DNA of 64,000 nt, taken from IMG/VR virus record IMGVR_UViG_2909314774_000001. One strand, 5' to 3'. Below, one piece after another: positions 24,855 to 63,543 of this stretch. Each line of letters begins with the position of its first letter. Positions within the stretch are counted from its first letter, which is position 1. The stretch comes from a virus (Duplodnaviria; Heunggongvirae; Uroviricota; Caudoviricetes). Under the pieces are notes generated by a model that made no database searches, had not been told where the DNA came from, and saw only the letters and a program-made list of their open reading frames with translations. A program made the translations under genes and the position numbers.

Positions 24855-24897
24855 CTAATACTAGAAAACAATTTGTTTAAAAAACAAAGGAAAGCAC

Positions 24898-26238
24898 ATG
24901 ACCGAACTTTGCCATACAGGACGCGGGCTGTCCGAAGAGTTTGATGAAGATTTCCAGAACAGACTGACGGCATATTTTTGTCGTGATCACGAGTTTCTTA
25001 CTCGTGCGGGAGATCTGGTTGTGCCTAGCCAGTTTGCCAATGCGGCCAATGCCATATTGGTTAATATGGTTTCGGGCTATTACCGTATGTACAAGAGCGC
25101 GCCCTCTTCATCTGCAATTCTGGATATGCTTAAGCGTGCGAAACGCGATAAGACTATCCGTGAGGAACTATTCGCCGATGTTGTTGCTGCGTTTAAGCGC
25201 ATTCTTGCAGAAAAATTGTCCGATACCTCGTACATGGTTGACCAGGTATCAACCTTCGCAAAAAGTGTAGCGTTTGATGATGCTCTGATTAAGGCTGCTG
25301 AACTGAAAGAGAAAGGCGACTTTCAGGGGGCGATGGCAATCATGGCCAAGGTTCAGCAGATTGGATCGAACGAAGCGACCGGAATCTATGACTACTACAC
25401 CTCCGCAAGTGAGCGATTGAAAGCGCGTGAATATGAGGCTTCAGAGGAGTATGTACCAAACAGTATTACAACTGGACTCCCTCTTCTCGATAGGTTGCTG
25501 TACCAAAAAGGCTGGGCAAAGCGCGAAATGGTGCTCTTCATGGGGTTCGCTAAATCCGGTAAATCGACCGCAATGGGTGAGTTTTCCATAAACGCAACGC
25601 TTGCTGGCTACAATGTTCTGTATCTCTCGCTGGAGGTTCACACCACCATTTTATCCGACCGTTTTGATGCAAGATTGTCGGAGACAGAAATGTCCAAGCT
25701 GGTGGAACGGCGCGATGAGGTTCATCGTAAGTTGGCAGAGTTGGGAGCCACGAAGGGGATTGGTAGTTTGTGGGTGGTTGAGCGTCCGTCAGGAAGTATG
25801 TCACCGGCAGATCTGGACCGTATGCTTAACAGCATGAAAGCCAACGGCATGGTACCTGACATGGTTGTTGTCGACTACGCAGATTTGATGCGTGCCAGTT
25901 ATGACCTTCGTGATGATCGCGCCAACATTCGTAGTATCTACACCGATTTACGTGCTCTTTATGACAAGCATAACGTTGCTGGGATCACGGCATCGCAGAC
26001 AAACCGTGAAGGTGGAGCGTCAGAAGTTGCCACAATGATGCACGCTGCCGACAACATCGAAAAAGTACGTATTGCTGACCTGGTAATAACGATCAACAAA
26101 ACCGAAGAAGAAGAAGCGAAAGGAGAGGCTCGTCTCTACTTTGCTGGTTCACGTAACCAGCAGGGAGGGATCAGCATTCGCGTTAAACAAAACCTCGAAC
26201 AAATGCGCTTCATTGAGCGAATCTTAGACGTTACCTAA
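24898..26238 (+). CDS. DnaB-like replicative DNA helicase (RecA-fold)
   Basis: Walker A FMGFAKSGKST followed by SLEV and VVVDYADLM Walker B-like motifs, as in DnaB/T7 gp4 helicase domains; conserved AAAGGAAAGCACATG start context. Confidence 0.7.
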   Translation: MTELCHTGRGLSEEFDEDFQNRLTAYFCRDHEFLTRAGDLVVPSQFANAANAILVNMVSGYYRMYKSAPSSSAILDMLKRAKRDKTIREELFADVVAAFKRILAEKLSDTSYMVDQVSTFAKSVAFDDALIKAAELKEKGDFQGAMAIMAKVQQIGSNEATGIYDYYTSASERLKAREYEASEEYVPNSITTGLPLLDRLLYQKGWAKREMVLFMGFAKSGKSTAMGEFSINATLAGYNVLYLSLEVHTTILSDRFDARLSETEMSKLVERRDEVHRKLAELGATKGIGSLWVVERPSGSMSPADLDRMLNSMKANGMVPDMVVVDYADLMRASYDLRDDRANIRSIYTDLRALYDKHNVAGITASQTNREGGASEVATMMHAADNIEKVRIADLVITINKTEEEEAKGEARLYFAGSRNQQGGISIRVKQNLEQMRFIERILDVT

Positions 26239-26319
26239 AAAATAAGCGTGGAGAACACCTCCACGCTTGATTCATTGGTGAAACAACTTTTCTTTTGCCA
26301 AACCACAAAAGAAAAACAC

Positions 26320-27498
26320 ATGAGCCTTTATGTTATATCAACATTTAGGTTGGTCACAATATTGCCTGTTAAAAGTGGAATTATCGTGAGCGAGCTGAAA
26401 GAGCTAATTACCGAATTAGATTTTGAACAATGGTTGGATACTGAAGGTATCGTTTATCGACGTGGAGGCGTGAGTGCTCGCGGTCGTGAAGTGAATATCA
26501 AGGAATGTCCGGTATGCGGCAGCTCCAACTGGAAGGTATATTTCAATCTGACCAGTGGCGTCGGCAAATGCTTTGCTGGTGATCATCCCGAAGAGATTCA
26601 GTTCAATAAGCTGGTCTTCCTCAAGCACTACAGCGGCAAATCACGACGACAGTTCGAGGAATATGTGCAGAACGCCCTTCTTTCCCAGGGGTGGGCACCA
26701 AAGAAAGAAGAGATAGTGCTTGCAAGCACAGTCGAGTTAGAGGGACCACTTGCACTCCCTCGTCATTACGAACTTCCTATAGATGGCCGTCTTCCAGACT
26801 ATCTGGTTGAACGAAACATATCGCCTGAAATGGCAAAGTATTTTGACCTACGATACTGCGTCGAAGGCAAGCACGCCTATGTAGATCCGTATACAGATCA
26901 GGTTAAAGGACAGATATTCGATATGCGAATACTGATACCGGTTTACGATCTGGATGGGGTAATGAAGACATTTCAGGGACGAGACATTACCGGTACAGCA
27001 GAACGCCGCTACCTCTTTCCTATGCAGCTTCCAGCTTCAGGTAAGTTTCTCTACAACGGCCATAATGCAGTCGGCAAACAGACTGTAGTTGTCTGTGAGG
27101 GGGCGTTCGATGTTATGGGGGTTAAACGAGCTATTTTTGACGAAGAAACATTACGTGATTACGTGGAACCAATAGGAACGTTCGGGATGCATCTATCTGG
27201 TAACACCACTCAGGATGCAGAAGATCAGTTAGGCGCGTTCCTGACGCTCAAGGCGCGTGGGTTACGTAATGTGATCATGATGTGGGATAGTGAAAAGCAA
27301 GCTATACGTAATACGATGGCCGCAGCCAGGCGACTGACCAGTATTGGTCTTAATGTCAAAGTGGCGTGTTTGGGCGAGGAAGGACTCGACCCGGGCGATG
27401 CAACGCCAGAGCAAATCATCAAAGCCTATTATCGGGCAAAACCGTATACCAAGCAGTTGGAGTTACAAAGCAAGGTTTTGGGCATTAAGGCTCTATGA
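26320..27498 (+). CDS. DNA primase (zinc-ribbon plus TOPRIM)
   Basis: CPVCGSS...CFAGDH zinc-binding motif then TOPRIM-like VVVCEGAFDVMGV and MMWDSEKQ; start moved to ATG 26320, which carries the conserved AAGAAAAACACATG context. Confidence 0.65.
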   Translation: MSLYVISTFRLVTILPVKSGIIVSELKELITELDFEQWLDTEGIVYRRGGVSARGREVNIKECPVCGSSNWKVYFNLTSGVGKCFAGDHPEEIQFNKLVFLKHYSGKSRRQFEEYVQNALLSQGWAPKKEEIVLASTVELEGPLALPRHYELPIDGRLPDYLVERNISPEMAKYFDLRYCVEGKHAYVDPYTDQVKGQIFDMRILIPVYDLDGVMKTFQGRDITGTAERRYLFPMQLPASGKFLYNGHNAVGKQTVVVCEGAFDVMGVKRAIFDEETLRDYVEPIGTFGMHLSGNTTQDAEDQLGAFLTLKARGLRNVIMMWDSEKQAIRNTMAAARRLTSIGLNVKVACLGEEGLDPGDATPEQIIKAYYRAKPYTKQLELQSKVLGIKAL

Positions 27499-31636: not shown

Positions 31637-31711
31637 GATGGTGTAGCTCAGCGGTAGAGCAGTTGGCTGTTAACCAACTGGTCGGTGGTTCGAATCCACC
31701 CACCATCGCCA
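31637..31711 (+). tRNA. tRNA-Asn (GTT)
   Basis: Hand-folded cloverleaf: acceptor GATGGTG/CACCATC, D-arm GCTC-AGCGGTA-GAGC, anticodon arm GTTGG-CTGTTAA-CCAAC, T-arm GGTGG-TTCGAAT-CCACC, encoded CCA. Confidence 0.85.
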
Positions 31712-31716
31712 ATTTA

Positions 31717-31803
31717 GGGGAGTTAGTCCGTAGGGGCAGCGGGGTAGACTGTAAATCTACTGTCATTGCGACTCGGGTGGTTCGACTCCATCACTCCCCA
31801 CCA
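31717..31803 (+). tRNA. tRNA-Tyr (GTA)
   Basis: Acceptor GGGGAGT/ACTCCCC, anticodon arm GTAGA-CTGTAAA-TCTAC, long variable arm, T-loop TTCGACT, encoded CCA; resembles E. coli tRNA-Tyr. Confidence 0.8.
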
Positions 31804-31807
31804 AATT

Positions 31808-31883
31808 GCCGGTTTAGCTCAGTTGGTAGAGCGCCTGCCTTGTAAGCAGGATGTCAGCGGTTCGATCCCGTTAACCGGCACCA
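31808..31883 (+). tRNA. tRNA-Thr (TGT)
   Basis: Acceptor GCCGGTT/AACCGGC, D-arm GCTC-AGTTGGTA-GAGC, anticodon arm CCTGC-CTTGTAA-GCAGG, T-arm AGCGG-TTCGATC-CCGTT, encoded CCA. Confidence 0.8.
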
Positions 31884-32203
31884 ACACAACAGGTAAGAGC
31901 ATTGGGCGAATCGGCGATACTGACCACAAGCCCGTAAATCGATAGAGTCAGACCAGTGCTCTTACCGTTGTGAGGAAGTGCAGCTCTTTGAAGCAACCAG
32001 AAGATAAGCATCTGGCTTCACAACACAACGATAAGATCATTACGGTTAATCGTCGTTCATGTGCACAATGACTGGTCGAAAGGTAGTGATCTTACCGTTG
32101 TGATGAATGCACAGGCTGATGTGCCGCAACTACAGTAGTGCGCGCTTTGCGGGGCTTGCTACAACCCTGTGTCGGAGTTCAGCACCGACCATCACAATAG
32201 CTG

Positions 32204-32290
32204 GAGAGTAGGGAGCATGGTGCTCAAGCGGTCTTGAAATCCGTCCCATTGTGCAAACGATGATGGTTCGATTCCATTACTCTCCGCCAG
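32204..32290 (+). tRNA. divergent tRNA-Ser-like gene (anticodon TGA), possibly degenerate
   Basis: Acceptor GGAGAGT/ACTCTCC, T-arm GATGG-TTCGATT-CCATT and CCA end are good; anticodon loop CTTGAAA as in tRNA-Ser(UGA), but the D-arm and anticodon stem fold poorly. Confidence 0.45.
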
Positions 32291-35860: not shown

Positions 35861-36422
35861 GGTTACAACCTTTGCGCGTTCAATTCTCTCTGGTAAGTGC
35901 TTACCGATATTACATCAAAGGTTAGGGTTGTAAAGCTATTATCATTTTTTTCGATAGGCACTTAAAAGACCGGTTAAAGGCCATTGCACGGAGAAAAATT
36001 AGCCCAAAACAGGTAAGAAAATCAACTTGCATATGATATGAATGTATTCAGTATTGATACAAATTTTAGTAGTATTCCTTACCATAATATAAGTTAGAAT
36101 GGATTGATTGAATGAACACCACTATTTCCAGCCTAATCGCTCTTGAGATCGGACACGTACAGAAATTAGCTGATGAGTGTGTAGCTGACATCCTCACCGA
36201 TCTACCGAATGAGCAGATTCAGGTTGGTGTGAATGACACAACTGGATTTATATTCGAACTTAACAACAAACGCTTCACGCTTCTCAATACCGGCTCCGGG
36301 TCTTTAGCCGTCAGAATCTGTTAACCCCTCTTCTCCCTGCGCGAATGGCTTAGTTCCCTGTTCGCGCAGTGCTACATTAAACACACTAGTAAATAATTTG
36401 TTTTCATAACAAAGGATTAGCC

Positions 36423-38531: not shown

Positions 38532-38626
38532 TTAAAACAGCCTTAATGATAAGTAACTACTTACCATAGTTAATGGTATATTTATATAAGAACTTGAACG
38601 CTCATTAGAGAACAAAGGAAAAGCGC

Positions 38627-39862
38627 ATGACTACTACTGCACTGCAAAATGATAAAAATCCTTCTGATTACCTTGTTTGCAAGTGGTGCGGCAAATCATT
38701 TCACTATTTTAAGTCCCATGTAGCCAATGGTAATTGCGAGGGCATTCCTGAGTCAGTAAAAGATGCCGATCCTGACACCGTACTGAAAATGTACACAACG
38801 CAGTTTCCAGATGAACCAACGCTATCGAAAAAGGCACTTGATGCAATTCAAGCTAAACGTGCCGAGCAAAAAAGCGAAATGGCGAAATCTTCTGGCTTGA
38901 CCAGTAGCCCAGGCTACACAGGCACAGTTGAGTACAAGACAGATCTGGTCGCAGCTCACGAACTGCTAAACGTAACGGTGGAAGAACTCGGAACAAAACG
39001 TGGGACGCCGCTCATGGTTAGCGTCAACGTCAATACGCCGTATCCAGAGTTCGTTCCAGAAGTGAAGAAGGGCTACGTATATGGCGACTTCGAACTGATC
39101 AAAGATATTTTCATGATGCTTGAACTTGGCATACCTGGCTATTTGTGGGGTCATGCAGGAACAGGCAAATCGTCATTGCCTACACAGCTATGTGCTTTGC
39201 TCAATCGTCCGTTGATCCGTGCCCAACATACAGCATCAATGGAAGAGGCACATGTTACGGGGCAAATTCTGGCGCGTGATGGCTCTACGTATTTCGAGCC
39301 TGGCTTGCTTGCGCTCGCAATGAAGCATGGCTGGGTTTACCTCGCGGATGAATACGACTTTGCGTTTCCACAAATTCTTGGCGTGTATCAGCCAGTGCTG
39401 GAAGGTGAGGCGTTGGTCATCAAAGAGGCAACTCCAGAATGGCGTCGCATTACTCCGCATGAACGGTTTGCTTTCATTGGCACTGGCAACACAAACGGTT
39501 CTGGTGATGAAACCGGCTTGTACCAGGGTACAAACATCCAGAACGCCGCGAACTTTTCACGTTTTGGCATCGTTTCGAATGTGAAATACATGAGCAAAGA
39601 GGCAGAGATCAACATGTTGATAAATGCCGGCATCGTGGATGAATACGCTGAAAAGATGGTTAAGTTTGCCGGTATCGTTCGCGATGGATATGAAGAACAC
39701 CTTATCAGCCAGCCAATTGGGCCTCGTGAGCTTTTGTTGTCGGCCAAGATTGGAATGATGCGAGGCGACTTTGTGACAGGTATTGAGCGTTCTTTCATTA
39801 ACAAACTCCCTTCAGCTTCTGCGCAAGCGGCTCGTGAAGTTGTTCAAAAAATATTTGGTTAA
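38627..39862 (+). CDS. AAA+ ATPase (CobS/MoxR-like)
   Basis: Walker A GHAGTGKSS, Walker B-like VYLADEYD, arginine-finger region; immediately downstream of the VWA protein, the usual CobS/CobT or MoxR/VWA pairing. Confidence 0.7.
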   Translation: MTTTALQNDKNPSDYLVCKWCGKSFHYFKSHVANGNCEGIPESVKDADPDTVLKMYTTQFPDEPTLSKKALDAIQAKRAEQKSEMAKSSGLTSSPGYTGTVEYKTDLVAAHELLNVTVEELGTKRGTPLMVSVNVNTPYPEFVPEVKKGYVYGDFELIKDIFMMLELGIPGYLWGHAGTGKSSLPTQLCALLNRPLIRAQHTASMEEAHVTGQILARDGSTYFEPGLLALAMKHGWVYLADEYDFAFPQILGVYQPVLEGEALVIKEATPEWRRITPHERFAFIGTGNTNGSGDETGLYQGTNIQNAANFSRFGIVSNVKYMSKEAEINMLINAGIVDEYAEKMVKFAGIVRDGYEEHLISQPIGPRELLLSAKIGMMRGDFVTGIERSFINKLPSASAQAAREVVQKIFG

Positions 39863-40042
39863 TCGTGCGTAAAGGATGTTTCGGCTCTCTTATCGCTGCT
39901 TCTGAAACTGGCAAGGCTTGTCTGGGGTGTCCAGACAAGCCCGATTGTCACCAATCAGCAAAAGAAGTTGCGATTTCGATGTATGGGAAGTTCGTAGGCT
40001 TCCCCAATGACAAAATCAAAAAAACCAGAAAGGTAAAAACAC

Positions 40043-43000
40043 ATGAAGGCACTGATGGTTCGAACTGACTTCTCACTTGGGGAGTCGGCTCTAAAAGCAG
40101 AAAACGCGGTGAAGATTGCCAGAGAAGCTGGCTACACCGCTGTAATTTCAGCAGATAGCATGAATATTGCAAGTGTTATTCCACTACAACGTGCCGCTGG
40201 TGACGACATGGCGGTTATTTGTGGTGTGAAACTAAACATTGTTGATGATCCCACATACGAGCACCGGGCTAAACTTGCTAAAGAATCTATGAGATGTATG
40301 GAATCATTAGAGCGGGGACGTAACTACTCGTTTACCGCTCTAATTAAAAATGAGCAAGGATATCGCGACATCTGCGAACTAATGACGGCGGCCAACACAC
40401 GAGAACAGTTCTACTTTGTACCGCGTCTCTCGCTCGAACAGTTGGTTTCTACATATGCCAAAGGCAACATCATCCTGCTTACTTCCGACATCGGTAGCGT
40501 GTTCCAACGCAACGATTTTGCAAAAATCATAAGCACACTGATTACAGCGGGTGGAAAAGACAACTTCTATAGTGTGGTTTATCCGCACCCTACCCCATTC
40601 TACGACCAGATTAACGTCCGGGCGATGAAAGTCGCCAGCGCATTGAAAATAGAGCCAGTGGCGTTCTATCCCGCTTATTACGAATCGATCGACGATGCAG
40701 ACATTAAAGACATTGCGCACATGGTTACGAACAACATCAAAATCGACCAGCCGCATCGTCTGCGTATCCCCCACCAGCGAGATAACGCCGTCAATGGTCG
40801 CCGCCATCTCCTTGAGGCGCTTAAAGCCTTCTCCGTTCGCATGGATGTGCCGGTAACAGCTGCAATGGCCTCAACAACGCAGGATACCATTATCGATGCC
40901 TGCACATGGCGCTGGCATGAATTGCCGCCAGCACTGCCAAAGATGGCAGACGACGAGCCTGCAACGCTTATGAAACTGGCTGTTGCAGGGCTGCGTAAAC
41001 GTCTTACCACAAAAGAGTTTGGCTACACACCACCTGCTTCTGAGAACAGGGTTTATGTTGAGCGGCTAAAGTACGAAATGGACACGCTGACTCGCCTGGG
41101 ATTTTGTGGTTACTTCCTGATGGTACGCGATCTGATGAATCATAGTCGTGAAACTGGCATTCCCGTTGGGCCTGGTCGTGGTTCCTCTGCCGGTTCTCTG
41201 GTGGCGTGGTGCATAGGCATAACCAACGTCGACCCAATCCGTCACGGTCTTCTGTTTGAGCGTTTCATCAACCCTGAGCGTCTCGACTTGCCGGATGCGG
41301 ACTTGGACTTCAGCCAGGCACGTCGCCATGAGGTGATCGAGTATCTGAATGAACGCTACGGCGAAGATTACGTTGCGGGTATTCCGAACTTCACCTACCT
41401 GGGCGCAGCCTCTGCACTACGTGATACCGCTCGTATTTATGGTGTGGAGTCCGCAGATATGGCGGTATCAAAAGAACTGAAGAACGCTGAGGATGATAGC
41501 CTTCCATTGGAAGAACTGCGCGAACAACTGGCAAGTCTCGACAAATACGCAACAAAATATCCTGATGCATTCAATGCAGCCTGCAAGTTACAAAGCCTTA
41601 TGCGTGGCTTTGGTAGACATGCGGCAGGGATGATCGTAGCAGGTGTTCCTCTGACAGAACGTACACCGGTTGAGCGCCGTGGTGACGCGCGTTGTATCGC
41701 ATTTGACAAGCGTTACTGCGAGGCTATGGGCCTAATTAAGCTGGACGTGCTTGGCCTGGCAACTCTCGATTTGCTCGATAGTGCAAAACGCTACATAAAA
41801 GAGAACACAGGTGAAGATATCAATCTTGATGCCATTTCTCTTGAAGATCGCAAGGTGCTGGATGGTTTTGCTGCTGGGTACACTCAAGGTGTTTTCCAGC
41901 TTGAATCAGGCCCAATGCGCAAGCTGCTTAAAGATTTAGGTGGTGGAATTGAGCCAATGAGCTTTAAAACGGTCGTCGCTACAACTGCGCTCTTCCGGCC
42001 GGGGCCAATTCAATCAGGCATGTTGGATGACTATGTTTCTGTCGCCAAAGGCTTTATGACGCCGGAATCATTACACCCCGTTCTTGATGAACTTACCGCG
42101 GAAACAAATGGCGTGATTCTCTATCAGGAACAGACGATGAACGCGACTCGATTGCTTGCCGGCTTCACAATGGCTGAAGCTGACGCTGTGCGTTCCGCAA
42201 TCGGTAAGAAGAACATGGAAAAAATGAAGAGCATGGGCGAGAAGTTCATCGTTCAGGCTCAAGCTGGCTGGATAGACGTTGAGCTGGAAGATGGCACTAC
42301 ACAGCGCATTCACCGTGCGGAACATTTTAAATGCGAAGACGGAACTCTGAAAACTGTCGAAGAGGCACTTGAGCACGGCGCAAAACTACCTATAAACGCA
42401 GTACGCGTTACAGCGTCACATCCAGGGCTATCAGAGATGAAAGCGAAGGAGATCTGGACCGCATTTGAGAAAAACGGAGCCTATCAGTTCAATAAATCAC
42501 ACTCCGTTGCTTATTCTTTAATCAGTTATCAGTCTATGTGGCTAAAGACGCACTACCCTGCTGAGTTCTTCGCAGCTGCGCTCACCATTCTGGGCGAGGA
42601 TAAGCATCAGGGGCTGGTGAAGGATGCGCTGACCTATGGCATTCGCGTATTGCCACCAGACGTTAATGTGTCATCTAACCGAATTGAGATCCGCACACTC
42701 GAAGACGGCAGTCAGGCACTGTATGCGCCATTCTCTGCTGTGAAAGGCTGTTCTGAAAATGGTTGTCAGGCAATTATGCGTGCGCGTGAGAAAGTTGGTG
42801 GCAAATTCGAGTCAGTGGCACAATTCGATGAAGCGGTCGAGAAGCGTGCATGTAACAGTCGTGTACGCGAGTCGCTTCATAAAGTAGGGGCTTTTGCGTC
42901 AATTGAGCCAGGCAGTCTTCCAGCAACTGATCCTGAACGACTGCGCGACCAGGCTGAGCTGATGGGCAATCTCATCATTGACGCTGTTAAAGCATCACGT

Positions 43001-43561: not shown

Positions 43562-43864
43562 TAAAGAAAACCCGCCTGTTGGCGGGTTTATAAAGAATTA
43601 TGGCGCTTGTTGAGGAAGTCACTCCTCTTACGCACTTTGTTTTGCCATGCCGGCAGTTAGCTTCTGCCTTTGACTATTCATGCGGCAACCCCGCATTTCG
43701 CCACAATGGGCAATTCACTTTTATGGAATAAACTGGCCGTTGTGTCGATTTAATTAGCATGGCCTTACCATGCTAATTTATTCAACTTGTACAATCCTGC
43801 AAATCTATCCACTCAGGCTTACACCGTCTTCGTTATTGTAGAAATGAGGATCATCAGCGTTGAA

Positions 43865-44080
43865 TCAGCTTAGAGCAATGACATTTGCTGCTGCTGGGCC
43901 TTTAGCCCCATTCTCGATAGAGAATTCGACCTGCTGGCCTTCTTCCAAAGTGCGGAAATTATTACTCTGAATTGCCGAAAAATGTACAAAAACATCTTTA
44001 CTGCCATCAGCAGGAGAAATAAAGCCAAAGCCTTTATCAGAGTTAAACCATTTTACTAAACCAGTCATTTTATTAGACAT
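43865..44080 (-). CDS. cold-shock protein (CspA family)
   Basis: [38 protein letters not shown]: RNP1/RNP2 motifs of CspA-type OB-fold proteins; start placed at the internal ATG (70 aa). Confidence 0.85.
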
Positions 44081-44409
44081 AGATATTACCTTCTTAATTT
44101 TGTGAGCCACATAGTGCGGCGAGAATTTGATCTGTATAGATTGGGACTTACTTAGGCACTTAAGGAGGAGACTCACGAAGAAGGGAAATCAGAAGATAAC
44201 ACTGAACTGAGACTGCTTTACTAAAACTGCTTACATAAGGTCTGTCTTGCAAACCAACGATGCTATTAACGCATACCCCTTCTTTTCATGCAACCTTTAT
44301 TTTTCAAAGATAACTAATTTTTGTCACCATTGGTTTAGTAAACGTTAACGAACCAGACGATGCCAGACACCTTTACAGAGAACAGATGCCCGCCAATTGG
44401 CGGGCATCA

Positions 44410-44973
44410 TTATGCGCATTTCGCAATATCTTTGCGGCGTTTAATCAGTTTCTCCGCAATTTGCTCTATTTCGTTGAAATCTTTCGAGACGCTGTTTCGA
44501 AGCGCCAGATTCCATTTACTCAAAGTTCGGGCATTTTGGACAATTTGATCGCCCTCTTTAAGTCGTCCGTTATTCATGAGCCATTCAGCCACATCAGCCC
44601 AATCCCAGAGAGGAGACTGGCCTTTTATGCGTTGTACAGGGCAAGGGAAGTCGCCGCTTCCGCGCTTACCGTCTTTGAGCAACGCCACTGCCTGGCGAGA
44701 CAGGTCTGTCAGTTCCGCGATATCGCTTAAGCCCACAAGAGCCGAGTCGACGGATTCAACAATTGCACCGATACCGGCTGATTCAATATTGTCGACCGCA
44801 GATGCGATAGCTGCATCAAGTGATTGTGCTTCGCGGTCAAATTCTACATAGACGGAGTTTCCATATGCGCAAATTAGCGCATCGTCACAGCCGTTTTGGT
44901 ACAGCGCGTCTTCCAGTCCTTCCGTCTCATACGATACGCCTGAGAGCGTCAGAGTGAAGTTATAAAGCGCCAT
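44410..44973 (-). CDS. DNA-binding protein with AlpA/MerR-like HTH (second gene of a two-gene operon)
   Basis: 187 aa from MALYNF (start context CAAAGGAAAACTATG); central segment LSRQAVALLKDGKRGSGDFPCPVQRIKGQSPLWDWADVAEWL resembles AlpA-type excisionase/regulator HTH domains. Confidence 0.45.
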   Translation of the reverse strand: MALYNFTLTLSGVSYETEGLEDALYQNGCDDALICAYGNSVYVEFDREAQSLDAAIASAVDNIESAGIGAIVESVDSALVGLSDIAELTDLSRQAVALLKDGKRGSGDFPCPVQRIKGQSPLWDWADVAEWLMNNGRLKEGDQIVQNARTLSKWNLALRNSVSKDFNEIEQIAEKLIKRRKDIAKCA

Positions 44974-45033
44974 AGTTTTCCTTTGAAGATAGTTGGACAG
45001 TTTCTGCAAAAGGCGGCTAATGCCGCCTTGAAA

Positions 45034-45944: not shown

Positions 45945-46061
45945 TTTTTGATAGATAATAAGTAAGTACTGATCTATCATTTAACAGCTCGAAAGAGCCA
46001 CGAATGAACGAAAGCCCAACGCGCATAGCGCCATCGGCCAAATCACAACAAGGAGAAACAC

Positions 46062-47090
46062 ATGTCTAAGACATTACTTGATTTGCTTAACAAAACTCGT
46101 GAAGACATTGCCGCCAAACGTGGCAACAACGTTGATCTGACTCGCTTAAAAGACGGCGTCAACTATATCCGCATCTTCCCGAATAAAGACGACCCAAACG
46201 GTAAGTTCTTCCAGACTTTCGGTATGCACTACGTTAAGTATCAGAACGAGGAAGGTAAAGAAGCAACCAACGCTTATATTTGTGAGCAACATACTCACGG
46301 TCGCGCTTGTCAGCTATGCGAAATGGTTATGGAAGGTCGCGCTCGTCACAAGGGTAACAAAGCAATGGAAGAACGCATCGGTCAAATGCGTGCCACTCCT
46401 CGCTACCTGGTCAACGGCATTCTTTCTGCTCGTGAGGATTTCGCAGATGCTGAGAAATGCCAGTTAATCGAGCTGCCGTCTACTGTATTCGATGATATCT
46501 GCAAAGCAATCACCGAAGACATCGCTGATGATATCGGCAATCCACTGAGCAAAGAGGAAGGCTACGCATTCCTGATTAAACGTACTGGCTCTGGTCGCGA
46601 TACCAAATATGACGTCTCGCCTAAGCGTAAAGTCTACAAAGGCGATATCGAAGATAAATTCTGGAACACCCAGCATGATCTGATCGCATACGCAAATCAG
46701 GCTGATGAAACTCGTCTTCTGTCGACAGTTCGCACTATGGGTCGTCTGATTGGCATCGCTGCACCAACTGCCGCAGCATCTGCACCAGCAATTTCCTCAA
46801 CCGCGAAAACATCGGCTGCGGCACTACCTGGATTTGGCTCTGTCACTGGTCATACGGAGGGTGCGACTGCTGTAGCAACCGCTCACACCCCAGCTTCTGA
46901 ACCAACCAGTCTGGTTGATGAAGAAATCCTCCGTGCCGTTGAAACTGAATTTAAACCAGAAGCAAGTTCCGCTGCCGTTGCCGTATCAGTCAAAGAGTCT
47001 GAAGCAGTCGCAGCGACATCTGTAGCAGCCGCATCTGCGACGGAAGACGAAGGTCTGGATGACCTACTGAGAGAGCTGGACTCTCTGTAA
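46062..47090 (+). CDS. single-stranded DNA-binding protein (T4 gp32-like)
   Basis: gp32-like segments (IRIFPNKDDPNGKFF; zinc-binding H/C cluster CEQHTHGRACQLCE) and acidic C-terminal tail (EDEGLDDLLRELDSL); followed by intrinsic terminator 47108-47135. Confidence 0.6.
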   Translation: MSKTLLDLLNKTREDIAAKRGNNVDLTRLKDGVNYIRIFPNKDDPNGKFFQTFGMHYVKYQNEEGKEATNAYICEQHTHGRACQLCEMVMEGRARHKGNKAMEERIGQMRATPRYLVNGILSAREDFADAEKCQLIELPSTVFDDICKAITEDIADDIGNPLSKEEGYAFLIKRTGSGRDTKYDVSPKRKVYKGDIEDKFWNTQHDLIAYANQADETRLLSTVRTMGRLIGIAAPTAAASAPAISSTAKTSAAALPGFGSVTGHTEGATAVATAHTPASEPTSLVDEEILRAVETEFKPEASSAAVAVSVKESEAVAATSVAAASATEDEGLDDLLRELDSL

Positions 47091-48363: not shown

Positions 48364-49437
48364 ATGGCAAAAGGAAAATCCGCACTGGCACTTGCTCTGA
48401 AAAAGAAAATCGGTAGCAACGACGAAATTCAGAAAGTAACTCATTGGATTGATACAGGCTTTCCACCGTTAAACAAAGCTATTTCTGGTCGTTACGATGG
48501 CGGCTTCCCATGTGGTCGTATCGTCGAAGTATTCGGTCCTCCAAGTGCAGGGAAAACGTTCCTTGCAACAGCAGCGATGATCTCCGCTCAAAAACAAGAT
48601 GGTCTGGCGGTATTCCTCGATCATGAAAACAGTTTTGACGTTGGCCTGGCTGTAGCCAATGGCCTGAACGCAGATGAGGATGACGGTCAGTGGGTATACA
48701 AGCAGCCAGATACCTTCGAAGACTCTGTAGAGTTGATCGGCACAATACTTAAATTGGTTCGTGATGAAGAGCTTATCCCCGAATCAGCACCTATCTGTAT
48801 CGTGGCTGACTCTCTTGCGTCTATGGTTCCGAACTCCAAAGCCGAGAAGTTCGAAAAGATGGCTGAAGGCACTGCCAAAGACAAAGATCAGCTAAACATG
48901 AACGACAATACGGCACTGGCTCGTGCGACGAGTGCGAACTTCCCTACTCTGGCTTTGTGGGCACGCAAATACAACGCCTGCATCATCTTCTTGAATCAGG
49001 TTCGCACAAAAATCGGTGTAATGTTTGGCGACCCTACTACGTCGCCAGGTGGAGATTCACCGAAGTTCTACGCTTCTGTACGTATCCGTCTTGGTGCATC
49101 GGTGATGAAGGATGGTAAAGAGAAGATCGGCCAGGACGTAGGCGCAGAATGCATCAAAAACAAAGTTGCACCACCGTATGGCAAATGCACCTGGAAATTC
49201 TACTTCGATCCTACTCGTGGCCTCGACGTTATCGAATCGCTCGTCGAGTACATGCTGGAAGAAGGATACCTGCCAAAGAACGCCAGCGGGCGAGTTGAAA
49301 TTGGTGACAAGAAATACACCAAATCGCAGATCGTTGAGATGTATCGGGAGAAGCCACTGGCTGAAATCATTGCGGCTTTGCAGGCAATCGACGACCGAAG
49401 AGCAAAAGACAACCCCACCGAGTCAGTAGAAGAGTAA
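48364..49437 (+). CDS. RecA/UvsX-like recombinase
   Basis: Walker A GPPSAGKT and RecA-fold core (VFLDHENSFD, IIFLNQVR); 357 aa; followed by intrinsic terminator 49441-49468. Confidence 0.7.
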   Translation: MAKGKSALALALKKKIGSNDEIQKVTHWIDTGFPPLNKAISGRYDGGFPCGRIVEVFGPPSAGKTFLATAAMISAQKQDGLAVFLDHENSFDVGLAVANGLNADEDDGQWVYKQPDTFEDSVELIGTILKLVRDEELIPESAPICIVADSLASMVPNSKAEKFEKMAEGTAKDKDQLNMNDNTALARATSANFPTLALWARKYNACIIFLNQVRTKIGVMFGDPTTSPGGDSPKFYASVRIRLGASVMKDGKEKIGQDVGAECIKNKVAPPYGKCTWKFYFDPTRGLDVIESLVEYMLEEGYLPKNASGRVEIGDKKYTKSQIVEMYREKPLAEIIAALQAIDDRRAKDNPTESVEE

Positions 49438-49529
49438 ACACAAGGCGTCCACAGGACGCCTTGTTTATCTCTTGAAAATATATAAGTACTTACTTATTAT
49501 TTTCGCATAACAACCACATAGGAAAACAC

Positions 49530-49730
49530 ATGATCAAAATCTATCTATTGGCAGTAGCCACAGGCCTTTCAGTGGCTCTCATCTACGGTTTACTGGTTCC
49601 GTCGCTGATTTCTACCAAGAGTGATTTAGCCGTCATGTTTGGAGTTATCGTTGGTTTTGGTGCTCCTGTAATCGGTCTTATTGCTGGTCGTAAGTTTATC
49701 AACTCATTAATCAAAGCAAAGGGGAAATAA
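49530..49730 (+). CDS. small two-helix membrane protein
   Basis: 66 aa, two hydrophobic helices; ends 4 nt before the SPFH lipoprotein gene. Confidence 0.4.
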   Translation: MIKIYLLAVATGLSVALIYGLLVPSLISTKSDLAVMFGVIVGFGAPVIGLIAGRKFINSLIKAKGK

Positions 49731-50564: not shown

Positions 50565-52230
50565 CTCCCCTAAAAAGTTCAGGCGTCCAGTTGGACGCCT
50601 TTTTTATCGCAATTATCTTATTAAGAAAACAATTTGTTTAAAAGGATAAGAAAACATGACAACTATTAAGAAACTCTACGATGCCGCAAACGTGGCTCTG
50701 GATGTTATTGATGATGAAGTAGCAAAAGGCTTTCCTGAACCTGATTGGGCGCATCAGCTACGAAACGCTATCGCAGAAATGACCCCACCAGATCCAACCC
50801 CCGACGAGACAGACTGGCAGCGATTCATCCGTATGTACGCTCAGGAAATAGGTCCAACGCCAACGGCAGAGCAGGCAATGCTGCTGAAATACTTCAAAGA
50901 GGCGGGAGAGGATTTACCAATTGATGACTCAGCATATTGGTTCCACTGCGCATGGCGTAAGTATGACGTGATATTCACACAAGGCATGGGAAGCAAAGAT
51001 ATGGTTGTGTGGCATCTACTCCATATAGACACAGCCGTTGACAGAGTTATTGAACAGTTTTTCCCTAAACAAGAAGATTGATCGCCTATTCATAACTAAC
51101 AAAATAAGTAAACACTAACCACAAAAGGAAAAACACATGAGAGTTTTAGTTCGAATCGTTACCAGCACTGTCTATGACGTGTTTCCGCTTTTTATGGTCA
51201 AAGCCGATGGCCTTAACGACGAAGAAACTGACGCGCTGATCCAGCGTATTCTCGTTGAATATACAGGTCATGACGCTGATTCAGTGATGGTTGATGATGA
51301 TGGTGTTTGTTGGCATAACGGCAACTGTTGGTACGTAGAAGAGACTCAACAAATCAGTGATGAAGATGCCGAACATCTTGAGCGTATTTTAAGCATCAGC
51401 ACTTTTGAGTGAGTTTACAGTAAAATTTATATAAGTTAGTATCTACCTATCATGAAGATTTTTATTGAATACTTGTTACTCATCGTTTCAATAGCTTTTG
51501 TCATCGACTGCATTTTCACTGGTGTCATTCGTAAAGTCTTTTCCCCGGTGCACGACGTAGTCATAAACGCTTTGGCTATCGTGCTCGTATTTAATTCAGC
51601 ATTTGATGTAATCAAAGAGGTGGCAGCATGAAGGCCATCCCATTCGCGCTGTTGTTCCTTTCTTCGATCGTTGTGGCCGACACCACTGTTTATCAGTGTG
51701 AAATGTCTGTAGCCGACGTTAAGAATGGCGCTCTTACCGACGTCATAAAAGCACCATATGGAGCGATGGTCGTAGACAGCGGCGACCAGTTCTATGTTGT
51801 GCGTGACGATCGAGTGTTGTCATCCCCATATCTCACAAATCGTAATGGCAAATTAACCGGCGTCGGAGAAGACCACTTCGTATACAACAAATACAAGGGC
51901 TTCTATGGCGTTCACGCTTCTCAGCAAAGCTACCTTTTCGATGACTGCAAGGAGGTTGGATAATGGCATTAACACTGGCAGGTCTGGAAATCGAGAAAAC
52001 AAGCGGCTACTGGCGTGCTAAGGGTTTCAAGCAGCCTGGCATTCTTGAGCGTCTGGAACGTGAAGATGGGTATATCGTCCACCAGCGGCGTGAATGGCGT
52101 ATGTACGATCCAGAAACAGGAAAACTGACTACAAAAGCCGGAACACTTTGGGGTCTGTTGAAGAAAATTCACTGATAACACCAACCACTGCGGTGAGTAG
52201 TCTGCTCACCGCATTCGTATCCAGCTCATT

Positions 52231-52662: not shown

Positions 52663-52664
52663 GG

Positions 52665-55107: not shown

Positions 55108-55362
55108 CCCTCCAGATCGTATATTGGCGTAGATAGAATCTACGCCCCCTCAAAATAGCTCTCATAGCGTTCTACAGTGATCCTGTCTTATTTTTAGTCA
55201 TACAGACAAGCAAAGTTGCGCCACGATAAATAGGTATATACTTACTTATAAATTTTTGTATATTAAGGCGCTCGTTTCATTCCTAACATACCGTTATGCA
55301 TAGTTGTTTACCTCCTCATTGCTCTTAGAATTTGTATCAAAATAACCACAAAGGAAAAACAC

Positions 55363-56448
55363 ATGACTTTGCCATACGGCGTCATTTCTGACTGCCACTA
55401 CCATAAATGGGATGCGTTCTCCACGACGAACGCTGAGGGGCTTAACTCCAGACTTGAAATACAGTTGGAAGCAACGAAAGAAGCAGCCATCGCCATGAAG
55501 AAGGCCGGTTGTAAGTACATGTTGGTTGCCGGTGATACATTTCACGTCCGAGGAACTGTGTCCCCTTCTGTTTTGCATTACGTAACTGAAACGTACAAGT
55601 GGATTATCAACGAGCTTGATCTGACAGTAGTAATGCTGGCCGGTAATCACGATCTTGAAACCAACGATTCAGTATATAGCGCCAACGCAGCAGCATCGCT
55701 GAGTTCTATCGGCGTGGTAATCGTATGTGGCAAGCGCCCACACTCAATAAAAATTGGTGATGTGACTGTCCACCTGATTAGCTGGCGTAACAATCATGCG
55801 GAGCTTATCAGCGATCTGAAAGCATTACGTAAGAGCGTAGAAGGTGATAATCATGACGTTGTTATCCATACATCCATTAACAAAGCCATTCCAACAATGC
55901 CTGACGTCGGTATCGATGCGCAGGAGTTAAAGGATATCGGCTTTCGTCTCGTGCTTAGTGGGCATTACCACAACCACAAAGAGGTCATTCCTGGAGTTAT
56001 CAGTGTCGGTGCACTGACTCATCAAAATTGGGGAGATGTTGGATCTCTGGCTGGCTACATGATCGTAAACCCGGACGGCAGTTTCAGTCACTACGAAACC
56101 AGTGCGCCTAAATTCATTAACCTGGAAGATGATGTTGCTGATGACCAAATTCGCGGCAACTACGTGCGTTTCCGCGCCGTAATTGAGAACGATGAAGAAG
56201 GCATTAAGTACCAGAACATCCTCAAAACAATGGGTGCAAAAGGTGTCGTGTGCAACTTCATCCGTAAGTCATCAATGATGGAAGGTACAGCCAGCACAAC
56301 TGAAACCAGCAAAATCGATAGCCTGGGAGAGTCGGTATCTGCTTATTGCAAGATTGTCCACGATACTGACGGCGGATTTGATCTGAGCAAATTGGATATT
56401 TTGTGTCAGGAAATCCTCACCGAAGCGGAGAGTTCGGAGGCTGTGTGA
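55363..56448 (+). CDS. SbcD/Mre11-like nuclease (calcineurin-like phosphoesterase)
   Basis: Phosphoesterase motifs LVAGDTFH, MLAGNHD, LSGHYHN; conserved AAAGGAAAAACACATG start context; followed by the SbcC-like gene. Confidence 0.75.
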   Translation: MTLPYGVISDCHYHKWDAFSTTNAEGLNSRLEIQLEATKEAAIAMKKAGCKYMLVAGDTFHVRGTVSPSVLHYVTETYKWIINELDLTVVMLAGNHDLETNDSVYSANAAASLSSIGVVIVCGKRPHSIKIGDVTVHLISWRNNHAELISDLKALRKSVEGDNHDVVIHTSINKAIPTMPDVGIDAQELKDIGFRLVLSGHYHNHKEVIPGVISVGALTHQNWGDVGSLAGYMIVNPDGSFSHYETSAPKFINLEDDVADDQIRGNYVRFRAVIENDEEGIKYQNILKTMGAKGVVCNFIRKSSMMEGTASTTETSKIDSLGESVSAYCKIVHDTDGGFDLSKLDILCQEILTEAESSEAV

Positions 56449-59327: not shown

Positions 59328-59336
59328 GGAGACTAT

Positions 59337-59979: not shown

Positions 59980-62295
59980 ATGATAAGCATCGTAAAACGT
60001 AACGGCCAAACAGAGCCGTTATCCGAAGAAAAATACAACCGCGTCGTAATGTATGGCGTAGAAGGCATTCGTGGTGTAAGCGCATCCGCTGTAGCAATGG
60101 GAGCTGCGGCCAGCATTTTTGATGGGATTACCACCAGCCAGTTGCATGAGGCTTTGGTTAAATCTGCCGCTGATTTGATCTCACCAGAAGCACCAAATTA
60201 CTCACAGGTGGCTGCCCGCCTGAACATTTTTAAAATCCGCAAAGATGCCTTCGGTCGTTACGACTATCCGAACTTCTACCAACACATTGTCAAGAACGTT
60301 AACAAGGGCGTTTATGACAAGGATTTGCTGACACATTATTCGTTTGAAGAGATCGAAGAACTCGGCAATTACATTAAGCCGAAACGTGACGATCTTTTTG
60401 GCTATGCAGCTACGGTGCAGTTGCAAAGCAAATACCTCGTTCAAAACCGTGTTACTGGTGAGATTCATGAGGGGCCGCAACATATCTATATGCTGGTAGG
60501 CATGTGTCTGTTCCAGAATTGGGAAGACGACTGCGCTGGCAAAACACGTATGGAGATGGTCAAAGGTTTCTATGACGTTACAAGTACGTTCAAACTGTCT
60601 CTGCCCACACCAATCATGGCCGGCGTCCGTACTCCAACCCGTCAGTTCTCCAGTTGTGTGCTGATTGAGTCTGGCGATAGTCTGAAAGGGATTAGTGCAG
60701 CTTCAGCCGCAATTATCGACTACGTTTCACGTCGTGCTGGAATTGGTATTGGTTTTGGCCGTATCCGTGCGCTGGGCAGCGAGATCCGCAATGGTGAAGC
60801 CACCCATACCGGAGTTATTCCATTCCTGAAGCATTTCCAGACTGCTGTTAAATCTTGCTCGCAAGGTGGTGTCCGTGGTGGCGCAGCAACAGCGTTTTAC
60901 CCGATCTGGCATCTTGAAGTTGAAAGTCTGCTGGTGGTGAAAAATAACCGTGGTATCGATGAAAACCGCGTTCGCCATCTTGATTACGGCGTCATGAGTA
61001 ACCGTCTGATGTACCGTCGACTCGTCAGAAGCGAGAACATCACTCTGTTCAGCCCGCATGATGTGCCTGATATGTACGAAGCCTTCTTCACAGATCAGGA
61101 TCTGTTTGAAAAGCTGTACCATAAATACGAAGCCGATGATTCAATTCGCAAGAAGTCAGTACCTGCCATTGAGCTGTTCTCATCTCTGATGCAGGAACGA
61201 GCGTCCACGGGCCGAATTTATATTGCGAACGTCGATCATATTAACGAGCATGGCGCTTTCATTCCTGCTCTTGCACCTGTTCGCCAGTCAAACCTGTGCA
61301 TGGAGATCACTCTACCCACCCGTCCACTGGCATTTACCGACGACCCGAACGGTGAGATCGCGCTATGCACTTTATCCGCTTTTAACCTCGGAGCCATCCG
61401 TTCACTGGAGTCTCTTAAAGAGGTGGCGTTCTATGCCGTTGCTGCACTGGATTCGTTACTGGATTATCAAGACTATCCGATGGAGGCAGCCGAAGTGCCT
61501 GCCAAAGCTCGTCGTAGCTTGGGAATTGGTGTAACCAACTTTGCTTATTACCTGGCAAAGAATGGCGTTCGTTATTCTGATACCGCTGGCAATAAACTGG
61601 TGCATGAAACGTTCGAAGCTATCCAGTATTACCTTCTTGATGCCAGCTGCCGACTTGCTGAAGCAAAAGGTGAGTGTGACTGGTTTGAGCAGACCAAGTA
61701 CGCAATTGGTCAGTTGCCGATCGACCATTACCGTTCTTCATTAGACGAAAGTGGCGAAACCAACTTTGAGTTAAAGATGCCGTGGGAAGAACTGCGTGAA
61801 CGTATTGCAAAATACGGCCTTCGCAACTCCACACTGACGGCACAAATGCCATGCGAGACTTCCAGCCAGATCACTAATTCCACCAACGGCATCGAACCGC
61901 CTCGTGGCCCGGTGTCGGTGAAATCTTCTAAGGACGGCATCGTTAAGATGGTCGTGCCTGAGTTTGAAAAACTGAAGGAACAGTATGAATACCTGTGGGA
62001 TATGCCGGACAACCGCGGCTATCTGACAAAGGTGGCGATCATCCAGAAGTTCTTTGACCAGGCTATTTCAGCCAATACCAACTATGACCCTTCTCGCTTT
62101 GAAGGCGATAAAGTCCCAATGATGACGCTACTGTCAGATTTGCTTCTCGCCTACAAGATGGGAGTTAAAACGCTTTACTACCACAACACCAGAGATGGGG
62201 CAGGAAAGCGTGATGACGACGAACCGCAGAATCCACTGACGCAAGCTGTAGCCGTCGAGCCAGAAGATGAGTGCGACGGGGCCTGCAAAATCTGA
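59980..62295 (+). CDS. nrdA: ribonucleotide reductase large subunit (class Ia NrdA-like)
   Basis: N-terminal ATP-cone-like VKRNGQTEP...E.Y, catalytic Cys/Asn/Glu region (SNLCMEI, PCETSS) and C-terminal Cys pair (ECDGAC); 771 aa. Confidence 0.85.
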   Translation: MISIVKRNGQTEPLSEEKYNRVVMYGVEGIRGVSASAVAMGAAASIFDGITTSQLHEALVKSAADLISPEAPNYSQVAARLNIFKIRKDAFGRYDYPNFYQHIVKNVNKGVYDKDLLTHYSFEEIEELGNYIKPKRDDLFGYAATVQLQSKYLVQNRVTGEIHEGPQHIYMLVGMCLFQNWEDDCAGKTRMEMVKGFYDVTSTFKLSLPTPIMAGVRTPTRQFSSCVLIESGDSLKGISAASAAIIDYVSRRAGIGIGFGRIRALGSEIRNGEATHTGVIPFLKHFQTAVKSCSQGGVRGGAATAFYPIWHLEVESLLVVKNNRGIDENRVRHLDYGVMSNRLMYRRLVRSENITLFSPHDVPDMYEAFFTDQDLFEKLYHKYEADDSIRKKSVPAIELFSSLMQERASTGRIYIANVDHINEHGAFIPALAPVRQSNLCMEITLPTRPLAFTDDPNGEIALCTLSAFNLGAIRSLESLKEVAFYAVAALDSLLDYQDYPMEAAEVPAKARRSLGIGVTNFAYYLAKNGVRYSDTAGNKLVHETFEAIQYYLLDASCRLAEAKGECDWFEQTKYAIGQLPIDHYRSSLDESGETNFELKMPWEELRERIAKYGLRNSTLTAQMPCETSSQITNSTNGIEPPRGPVSVKSSKDGIVKMVVPEFEKLKEQYEYLWDMPDNRGYLTKVAIIQKFFDQAISANTNYDPSRFEGDKVPMMTLLSDLLLAYKMGVKTLYYHNTRDGAGKRDDDEPQNPLTQAVAVEPEDECDGACKI

Positions 62296-62400
62296 CATAT
62301 GGTGGGGTATAACCCCACCTTCTCTTTGATTTGTAAGCCTTGTTTAAACAAATAAGATAACAACTTGTTTAAACACATCAAAAAGCAAAAGGAAAAACAC

Positions 62401-63543
62401 ATGTCATATTCAACGTTCCGTTTGGGTGCTAATGATGCAACCAAAGAGCCTATGTTCCTCGGACAATCTGTCAACGTGGCACGTTACGATCAGCAAAAAT
62501 ACCGTGATTTTGAAAAGTTGATTGAACGTCAATTGTCTTTCTTCTGGCGGCCGGAAGAAGTTGATATTTCGAGCGATCGTATCGACTTCAACACGAAGCT
62601 GCGGGACCACGAACGTCACATTTTTCTGAGCAATCTCCGTTATCAAACGTTACTCGATTCAGTTCAGGGACGTAGCCCAAATGCAACGCTGCTGCCGCTT
62701 ATCTCTATTCCTGAACTGGAAACGTGGGTTGAAACATGGTCTTTCTCTGAGACTATCCATAGCCGCAGCTACACCCACATTATTCGTGGCATGGTGGACG
62801 ATCCGAGCATTGTTTTTGACGGTATTGTTACGGATGAAGAAATCATCAACCGAGCGATCAGTATCTCTGCTGAATATGACAGGCTTTATGGGATGACCTG
62901 CGAGCGCCAGTCGTTAGGTGAGAAGGAGTTTGAACGTCTGTACGTAAATGAATATGGCTGGGAGCCATACCCTTTGCACCGTCAGCTTTTCCGCACGTTG
63001 GTGTCCATTAATGCGCTTGAGGCGATCCGTTTCTATGTAAGTTTTGCATGTACGTTTGCCTTTGGCGAACGGAAGTTGCTTGAGGGTAACACCAAAATTA
63101 TGCGCTTTATTGCCCGTGATGAAGCTCTGCATTGCGAAGGAACTGAACGCATGATCCGCTTCATGCGTACCGGTCGCGAAGGTTTATTGTGGAAAGAGAT
63201 TGCTGCTGATGAAGAAAACGTCATTTACGACACCATGAAATCAGTAGCCGAACAAGAAATGAACTGGGCAGACTATCTCTTCAAAGACGGTTCGATGATT
63301 GGTTTAAACGCGGACATTCTCAAAACCTATGTAAAATACCGCACCAATCTGGCTATGAATCGTCTTGGCCTGAAGGCTTTATTTCCAGAAGTTACCACTG
63401 ATCCGCTGGTCTGGATGAACAAGTGGTTGTTAACCGACACACTGCAAATTGCACCACAAGAGGCAGAGCAAAGTACATATCTGGTAGGTCAGATCGATTC
63501 TACCGTGGATAAGGCTTCTCTAAGCCAGTTTGCTGACCTGTAA
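62401..63543 (+). CDS. nrdB: ribonucleotide reductase small subunit (NrdB-like, di-iron tyrosyl radical)
   Basis: Iron-ligand and radical-site motifs ([22 protein letters not shown]), C-terminal tail for R1 binding; start at ATG 62401 with AAAGGAAAAACACATG context. Confidence 0.85.

Follow-up and report, generated by a model that had tools for sequence, protein, structure and literature searches.

What does it mean when many genes of one viral DNA begin in nearly the same way? The question is raised by IMG/VR record IMGVR_UViG_2909314774_000001 (Caudoviricetes), of which we analyzed a stretch of 64,000 nucleotides, hereafter the window. An original prediction made from these letters had noted a near-identical start-codon context on genes for a helicase, a primase, a polymerase and other replication functions, had taken it to be more than a plain Shine-Dalgarno (SD) sequence, and had raised the hypothesis that the shared motif serves co-regulation or marks a site of processing. 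We find that this context, with the consensus …AAAGGAAAAACAC-ATG, marks roughly every ninth gene, that most of its carriers serve DNA replication and come after an intergenic gap, and that selection has kept and re-created it across a family of related elements.

A shared start context on replication genes

Counted with the 16-mer AAAGGAAAAACACATG, the window holds seven matches at up to three mismatches, compared with a mean of 1.09 in 100 dinucleotide-preserving shuffles of the window, none of which reached seven. All seven lie on the plus (coding) strand at the starts of open reading frames (ORFs), and three of them (51124, 55350 and 62388) are exact copies. The near-identical context is thus real and exceeds the A-rich SD background against which the original prediction had set it. 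A shorter 12-mer, GAAAAACACATG, gave seven window matches at up to one mismatch, with 0.54 expected. The core AAACACATG is present in eight copies, 8/8 on the plus strand, and seven of these begin a real ORF. We considered the eighth copy (28851; ACACATG) as an upstream ORF and rejected it because it falls within the preceding gene, near the 3' end of the coding sequence, where it is read in frame as ACA CAT GAG; judged from this position, it is probably not a start. The consensus is frequently extended on its 5' side to AACCACAAAGGAAAAACACATG (starts 26320, 49530, 51137 and 55363). At nine sites, the ORF that follows matches a protein annotated in relatives, and the orthologous starts are conserved. 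These nine sites, followed by two partial members, are:

24886..24900, plus strand: start of the DnaB-like helicase gene (24898), AAAGGAAAGCAC-ATG, spacer one base (one A) shorter, after a gap of 43 nt
26307..26322, plus strand: start of the primase gene, AAAAGAAAAACAC-ATG, without GGA in every lineage (AAGA only)
38614..38629, plus strand: start of the CobS-like AAA ATPase gene (38627), AAAGGAAAAGCGC-ATG, with GCGC instead of ACAC
40030..40045, plus strand: start of the DNA polymerase III alpha gene dnaE (40043), AAGGTAAAAACAC-ATG
46049..46064, plus strand: start of the gene for a gp32-family single-stranded DNA-binding protein (SSB; 46062), CAAGGAGAAACAC-ATG, CAC or TAC in other lineages
49518..49532, plus strand: start of the gene for a 66-aa hydrophobic protein (g49530), ATAGGAAAACAC-ATG, one A fewer
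51124..51139, plus strand: start of the gene for a 91-aa acidic protein (g51137), exact 16-mer
55350..55365, plus strand: start of the SbcD-like nuclease gene (55363), exact 16-mer
62388..62403, plus strand: start of nrdB (62401), exact 16-mer
24102..24116, plus strand: start of g24114, a partial member, CAGGTGAGCCAC-ATG, with CAC-ATG present and the A-run absent; adjoins a palindrome, P2 (24082-24101), described below
44971..44984, minus strand: start of the helix-turn-helix (HTH) gene at 44973, a partial match, AAAGGAAAACT-ATG, without CAC

The list in the original prediction needs some corrections. The CobS-like gene (38627) and the HTH gene (44973) do not have the CAC-ATG with which they had been listed, the primase lacks GGA, and the spacers at 24898 and 49530 are shorter; g24114, which had not been named, also has CAC-ATG (GGTGAGCCAC-ATG).

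Over long stretches the window is 97–100% identical to ~110-kb non-mobilizable IncFIB plasmids of E. coli (pM-64-197 and p3PT-111kb); phage Cyrano is 97.6% identical to the window and Salmonella phage SSU5 ~81%. Because of these identities, the window is assigned to an E. coli phage-plasmid of the SSU5 type. More than 880 PLSDB records match its backbone, and SSU5-like phage-plasmids are common in clinical Enterobacterales, some of them with resistance genes. Genes for replication, recombination and nucleotide metabolism occupy 24–64 kb of the window, and tail genes its first 20 kb. Nearly all of the motif genes belong to the replication, recombination and nucleotide-metabolism arm.

The tabulation of start contexts that had been proposed as a check was run on the whole of p3PT-111kb, a complete, PGAP-annotated relative (98% identical, 121 coding sequences). 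CAC occupies positions −3 to −1 in 13/121 coding sequences (14 with the motif start of the primase) versus 1.5 expected (binomial p=5.8e-9), and AC occupies −2 to −1 in 24. Every CAC gene follows an upstream gap of at least 40 nt (13/77 such genes versus 0/44 with shorter gaps), and no gene that overlaps or abuts its upstream neighbor has the motif. The structural module contains none (0/30 versus 13/91 elsewhere; Fisher p=0.037, a difference confounded by gap structure). This distribution overturns one part of the original prediction, the use of the motif to tell native genes from acquired ones: approximately 88% of the backbone genes are without it, among them every one of the 30 structural-module genes. 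Since most native genes lack the motif, its absence is uninformative on the origin of a gene.

Conservation and repeated gain of the motif

Orthologues were collected from 240 related IMG/VR loci around sbcD, cobS and the helicase gene, together with contigs of Kluyvera, Buttiauxella and Yersinia pestis; a contig search with the SSB returned 5 loci, which were used for genus range. We defined a diverged haplotype as an orthologue with less than 95% protein identity, and compared the nine motif genes with 16 control genes. Among diverged haplotypes of the motif genes, CAC was retained in 127/143 and NAC in 136/143. The control genes have CAC in 34/299, mostly in lineages of g24114, nrdA and g27577 that are themselves motif-bearing (p about 1e-59). 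Ungapped identity to the window was 0.88 at −3 to −1 and 0.84 at −7 to −4 for motif genes, compared with 0.55-0.56 for controls, while at −60 to −17 both gene classes showed an identity of only ~0.5. This retention bears out the claim that the context is more than a plain A-rich SD sequence.

Individual genes follow the same pattern. The helicase gene keeps CAC in 22/22 diverged haplotypes, and in g51137 …AAACAC-ATG persists in orthologues whose proteins are only 43-47% identical and whose flanks show no relationship. The CobS-like gene has the GCGC/ACGC variant in the E. coli lineage and AAGGAAAAACAC-ATG in others. Gains in other lineages were seen at cobS, cobT, nrdA, sbcC, g27577 and g45540; cobT, sbcC, g27577 and g45540 there read (G)GAAA(G)CAC-ATG, and nrdA forms a graded series across lineages (GGTGATAC, GGAGGACAC, GGGAAAACAC). 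The number of CACATG-led ORFs per 21-kb locus was 5.3, 5.7 and 8.8 in three lineages, versus at most 0.8 on the opposite strand. Every lineage sampled has the motif, elements of Kluyvera, Buttiauxella and Yersinia pestis among them. Purifying selection acts on it and it has been gained repeatedly in the family, and these independent gains in other genes and lineages also set it apart from a plain SD sequence.

The primase illustrates one use of the consensus, the correction of start-codon annotation. RefSeq relatives annotate this gene from a GTG that corresponds to window position 26386, 66 nt downstream of the ATG at 26320. Because each lineage conserves the motif at 26320 and orthologues align over the 22 additional residues, sequence comparison indicates that ATG 26320 is probably the true start and the annotated GTG wrong.

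Our literature search found the motif string in no paper, and the papers on SSU5, pHCM2 and Cyrano are silent on start sites and operators. Searching IMG/VR with the exact 16-mer returned, among the matches listed, many single chance matches.

Anatomy of the motif and comparison with host genes

The motif is poor in T, which makes up 12/224 bases at −16 to −1 of 14 sites. AAGGA, AGGA or GGAG, complementary to the 3' end of 16S rRNA, is present in 8/9 window sites, the exception being the primase. The last GG stands 4 to 11 nt from the ATG (mode 7-9), GG is missing altogether from 15 haplotypes, and the stretch between GG and CAC is 78% A. The motif is modular, consisting of an SD sequence, an A-run and CAC-AUG. 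Because the SD spacing varies over 4-11 nt while CAC stays at −3 to −1, CAC is anchored to the AUG and not to the SD sequence. Opening −18 to +13 is predicted to cost 6.2 kcal/mol in motif genes and 9.5 kcal/mol in the remaining genes that follow a gap (Mann-Whitney p=0.002), and structure prediction shows an unstructured leader on the SSB gene.

Two of these modules are what the host would be expected to prefer. When spacers were randomized in E. coli, A was best at every position and C was unfavorable (Komarova et al. 2020, PMC7264876); randomization of 25 nt gave positive effects for A and U and negative effects for C and G outside the SD sequence (Höllerer & Jeschek 2023, PMC10018350), and U at −1 gave ~23% more translation by pairing with A37 of the initiator tRNA (PMC10018350). 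The motif resembles the E. coli SD region with an A-rich spacer (PMC7264876) in having AAGGA 6-8 nt before the AUG, an oligo-A spacer and low secondary structure. It is unlike that region in its invariant C at −1 and −3, in the near absence of U, in its restriction to one element family and one gene class, and in a primase site without the SD core. The SD sequence and A-run thus match the generic E. coli optimum, a match that does not extend to the invariant C(−3) and C(−1). CAC is non-generic because the published E. coli data favor U at −1 and disfavor C; it is a natural, conserved −3 to −1 context that current models of E. coli translation do not predict.

Annotated genes of E. coli K-12 have CAC at −3 to −1 in 0/70 cases (Fisher p=0.002 versus the phage-plasmid); the sample included the S10, spc, alpha and str ribosomal-protein operons, tufA and fusA. 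To our knowledge AAACAC has no complementarity to 16S rRNA or tRNA-fMet. One host gene resembles the motif at its start: cspA, with AAAGGUAAUACACU-AUG. Its UUAAAGGUAAUACACU-AUG is nearly the dnaE site, AAAGGUAAAAACAC-AUG, with the same SD sequence and an A-rich spacer ending in ACAC. It differs in having U at −1 and, as its 5' untranslated region (5'UTR), a structured thermosensor of 160 nt, and in being a single host gene; we regard the resemblance as a lead.

An accessible ribosome landing site as the favored explanation

The explanation that we favor, with a probability of roughly 55%, is that the motif is an SSU5-family-specific, selection-kept, cis-acting consensus of the start region, which would serve as an always-accessible ribosome landing site for independently initiated early and replication genes. 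It would be built from three modules: an A/C-only, nearly U-free leader, often AACCACA; a moderate SD sequence (AAGGA) followed by two to five A; and CAC immediately before the AUG. Its users would be genes that need their own ribosome recruitment, situated after gaps with promoter-, operator- or terminator-like elements. Such a leader would be unable to pair with itself, leaving the SD sequence and the AUG single-stranded whatever the coding sequence. Because the leader would be unpaired and an A-run is the spacer preferred by E. coli ribosomes, loading of 30S subunits would be efficient and uniform on this gene class, and at the primase would occur even without GGA. Accessibility would then be the main selected property. 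CAC appears to be selected separately, and the candidates for its reader are a context effect of the ribosome or of its E site, or a specific factor. For post-transcriptional control of the replication module, the consensus offers a compact handle that can be tested.

Several observations weigh against this explanation. An account in which the motif is simply the best ribosome-binding site predicts it on the most abundant proteins, yet it is found on 0/30 genes of the structural module and on 0/70 host genes, ribosomal-protein genes included. The enrichment in the early class is confounded by gaps: when only gap-preceded genes are compared, the counts are 13/64 versus 0/13 (p=0.11). Finally, C is in general an unfavorable base in E. 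coli and U the best one at −1 (PMC7264876; PMC10018350); because C is disfavored, accessibility alone cannot explain an invariant CAC over any other A/C mixture.

Alternative explanations

The main rival to the landing site is a translational operator, in which a trans-acting factor binds the unstructured (A)nCAC-AUG and co-regulates the replication genes as RegA or gp32 does. We hold this to be possible and rather doubtful. It would account for CAC, which is element-specific, conserved and repeatedly gained and which generic translation rules do not explain. In phage T4, RegA recognizes a loosely conserved A-rich sequence that overlaps the start codon in many genes of the early class, of replication and of nucleotide metabolism, with late genes excluded. 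The carriers of the present motif (helicase, primase, polymerase, SSB, SbcD, NrdB and the CobS-like protein) are the functional class of the RegA regulon; here too the shared sequence overlaps start codons, and it is found on 13-14 genes of the early arm and is absent from the late structural genes. The differences are that T4 sites are A/U-rich and these are A/C-rich and U-free, and that no RegA homologue was found among the window proteins scanned or the gene names of the relative. If a specific factor does read CAC, phages outside the T4 family would have a RegA-like regulon of their own, the second of its kind and independent of the first.

Candidates for such a factor would be an unrecognized phage protein, the element's own gp32-family SSB, or Hfq or CsrA of the host. 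The SSB (46062-47090) is a true member of its family, matching PF08804 (gp32) with E=1.7e-66 over the whole profile, and its own start has the motif after a conserved hairpin. This two-tier hairpin (~46014-46039; GCC…GCGC-loop-GCGC…GGC) lies 23-48 nt 5' of the start codon; across six lineages its stems are invariant and its loop variable, with 0 compensatory pairs. The arrangement recalls, by analogy, the operator of T4 gene 32. In T4, the gene 32 mRNA is the only known target of this control and a pseudoknot nucleates binding. Like gene 32, the present gene encodes a gp32-family SSB whose mRNA has a conserved hairpin and then an unstructured leader to the AUG; unlike gene 32, the same leader occurs on ~14 genes, and the hairpin is without covariation, which counts against the operator. 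The variable distance between the SD sequence and CAC argues against a single rigid binding site reaching from SD to AUG.

The search for a reader was also unfavorable to the operator. We found no RegA (Translat_reg), CsrA, Hfq, KH or S1 homologue by Pfam among 29 window proteins, nor among the PGAP names of the 121-gene relative. The sole RNA-binding match was an accessory cold-shock-domain protein that is absent from p3PT-111kb. Charge and isoelectric point of the proteins singled out no candidate. At the RNA level, the reverse complement of the motif at up to three mismatches matched only the motif sites themselves in the window and the whole relative, which gives no antisense partner, and Rfam identified no small RNA, only tRNAs and the accessory cspA thermoregulator. 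In its fullest form the operator idea, which we put forward tentatively and think improbable, is that (A)nCAC-AUG is the operator of a previously unrecognized class-wide translational control in SSU5-type phage-plasmids, with a phage factor (the gp32-family SSB or an unannotated RegA analogue) reading the U-free leader and CAC. Such a factor would jointly turn on or off the genes of the replisome, of recombination and of nucleotide metabolism, for instance when the element passes from plasmid maintenance to lytic growth or back.

An unlikely alternative places the function at the level of DNA or transcription, the motif being the initial transcribed region of one promoter class, kept for promoter escape or start-site selection. 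Two genes have sigma-70-like promoters that bear on it:

55304..55331, plus strand: sigma-70-like promoter of sbcD, TTGTTT, 16 nt, TAGAAT
49472..49500, plus strand: sigma-70-like promoter of g49530, TTGAAA, 17 nt, TATTAT, with a P2 palindrome in the spacer

Their predicted transcription starts lie ~23-26 nt before the ATG, so that the motif would make up nearly the whole 5'UTR. The region at sbcD behaves as a classic promoter would: the −35 (TTGNNN) and −10 (TAGAAT, TAAAAT, TAACAT) elements are kept from lineage to lineage and the spacer between them is variable. The inferred 5'UTR, ~26 nt long, is approximately the motif itself, and the entire leader is strongly conserved (region 55304-55362, transcription start inferred). 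The g49530 start codon follows the predicted start of its transcript by ~23 nt, and a bidirectional terminator-like hairpin (49440-49464) precedes the promoter. Against a transcriptional role, CAC is anchored to the ATG and not to the −10 element, and every copy is at a start codon. What lies upstream also differs from gene to gene: distances vary, the gaps measure 43-255 nt, and they hold P1 or P2 palindromes, hairpins or sigma-70 promoters.

RNA processing is very unlikely. Here ACAUG would be cut by an endoribonuclease specific for ACA or A-rich sequence (MazF- or HicA-like), yielding leaderless mRNAs or shutting off the class. ACAUG, with A at −2 and C at −1, is indeed found in 136/143 diverged haplotypes, and relatives carry toxin-antitoxin modules. 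The coding regions of motif genes show no depletion of ACA, however (232 sites, observed/expected 0.89 versus 0.97 in other genes), which makes an ACA-cutting enzyme unlikely because such undepleted messages would be shredded. Conservation of an SD sequence and an A-run would be pointless on a leaderless mRNA, and no window protein scanned matched MazF or HicA in Pfam. The MazF model of leaderless mRNAs is itself disputed. A role of CATG in methylation or restriction was also considered and rejected; CATG has an observed/expected ratio of 0.77, like other 4-bp palindromes.

We give very little credence to a functionless legacy of duplication or recombination, with copies derived from one intergenic cassette or from homology linkers. 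In its favor, the same 16 nt recur unchanged in three copies, and several copies share 22 nt. T4-type phages carry PeSL (promoter-early stem-loop) and similar intergenic cassettes at gene boundaries of the early region, and the present motif is likewise a short sequence recurring at such boundaries; unlike PeSL cassettes, its homology extends over no more than ~22 nt and it has no stem-loop. Beyond ~22 nt the flanks of the nine sites are unrelated, orthologous sites approach the motif by point changes, as in the nrdA series, and motif positions are conserved while the adjacent intergenic sequence randomizes. This conservation pattern argues for selection on the start site over recombination. 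Chance or composition, the ordinary look of A-rich SD regions in this genome, would explain the A-rich spacer seen in many E. coli genes too, and is negligible given 7 matches versus 1.09 in shuffles, CAC in 13/121 genes versus 1.5 expected, 0/70 in the host and the retention in orthologues.

Elements upstream of the motif genes

Promoter-, terminator-, P1- or P2-type elements are found 5' of motif genes. P1 and P2 denote two intergenic palindrome families, both far more over-represented than the start-site motif:

P2 sites (20 bp each): 12307, 24082, 27516, 28391, 30869, 33856, 38566, 45958, 49478, 51431, 55230 and 59915, with 4611 at 2 mismatches
P1 sites: 21096-21113, 24863-24880, 36389-36406 (minus strand), 50624-50641 and 62355-62372

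P2, ATARGTA-N6-TAYYTAT (20 bp, with an N2 variant), has 13 distinct window sites at up to one mismatch versus 0.06 expected. In the whole relative there are ~30 sites; almost all of them are intergenic, and no module is without them, the structural genes included. At nrdA and g49530, P2 takes up the −35/−10 spacer of a sigma-70-like promoter, and elsewhere it ends 5-17 nt before the start codon. Because the half-site sequence itself is conserved across lineages, P2 suggests a DNA site for a dimeric regulator; by analogy it is possibly a global operator like the C1 operators of phage P1. An extended −10 element following P2 was tried as a common feature and rejected as inconsistent (3/20 sites).

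P1, AGAAAACAAnTTGTTTAA, occurs at 5 window sites versus 0.36 expected and at 18-20 sites in the whole relative versus 0.3, and its sites are conserved across lineages. It is almost always co-oriented with a gene start 10-40 nt downstream, among them those of the helicase, cobT, nrdB, a DUF7238 gene, a ParA-like ATPase and many small ORFs, and is a candidate operator or unusual promoter element. At the helicase gene (24898) it ends 18 nt upstream of the start site; nrdB is preceded by a terminator-like hairpin (62301-62319) and then by the P1 copy at 62355-62372.

Neighboring genes and minor observations

For the gene just before the SSB gene, it is uncertain which codon is the start (45513/45540). 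Several lineages have an in-frame ATG 27 nt 5' of the annotated one, with AAAAGGAAAGCAC-ATG, where the window has GTG.

In the tail region, an IS1 copy (~10027-10795; InsB 10042-10545 and InsA 10464-10739, both on the minus strand; Pfam InsA and DDE_Tnp_IS1) lies inside a TipJ-like tail-tip gene. This gene is split into 6773-10048 and 10876-12276, and is a single gene of 1575 aa in the relative. Because IS1 splits the tail-tip gene, the copy of the phage-plasmid in the window is probably unable to form infectious tails.

The accessory cold-shock gene (43840-44258, minus strand; cold-shock domain E=4.6e-33) is situated between dnaE and the HTH gene and carries a full-length cspA thermoregulator 5'UTR (Rfam RF01766, 183 bits). 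It is present in pM-64-197 and absent from p3PT-111kb. The protein encoded at 48364-49437 (357 aa) aligns only with the ends of a 779-aa 'LAGLIDADG family homing endonuclease' of p3PT-111kb and pM-64-197; judged from this alignment, an insertion (intein or homing endonuclease) seems to be present in these two plasmids and missing from the window. Four tRNA genes are clustered at 31637-32289 (Asn-GTT, Tyr-GTA, Thr-TGT and Ser-TGA), and p3PT-111kb is annotated with three (Ser, Thr and Asn).

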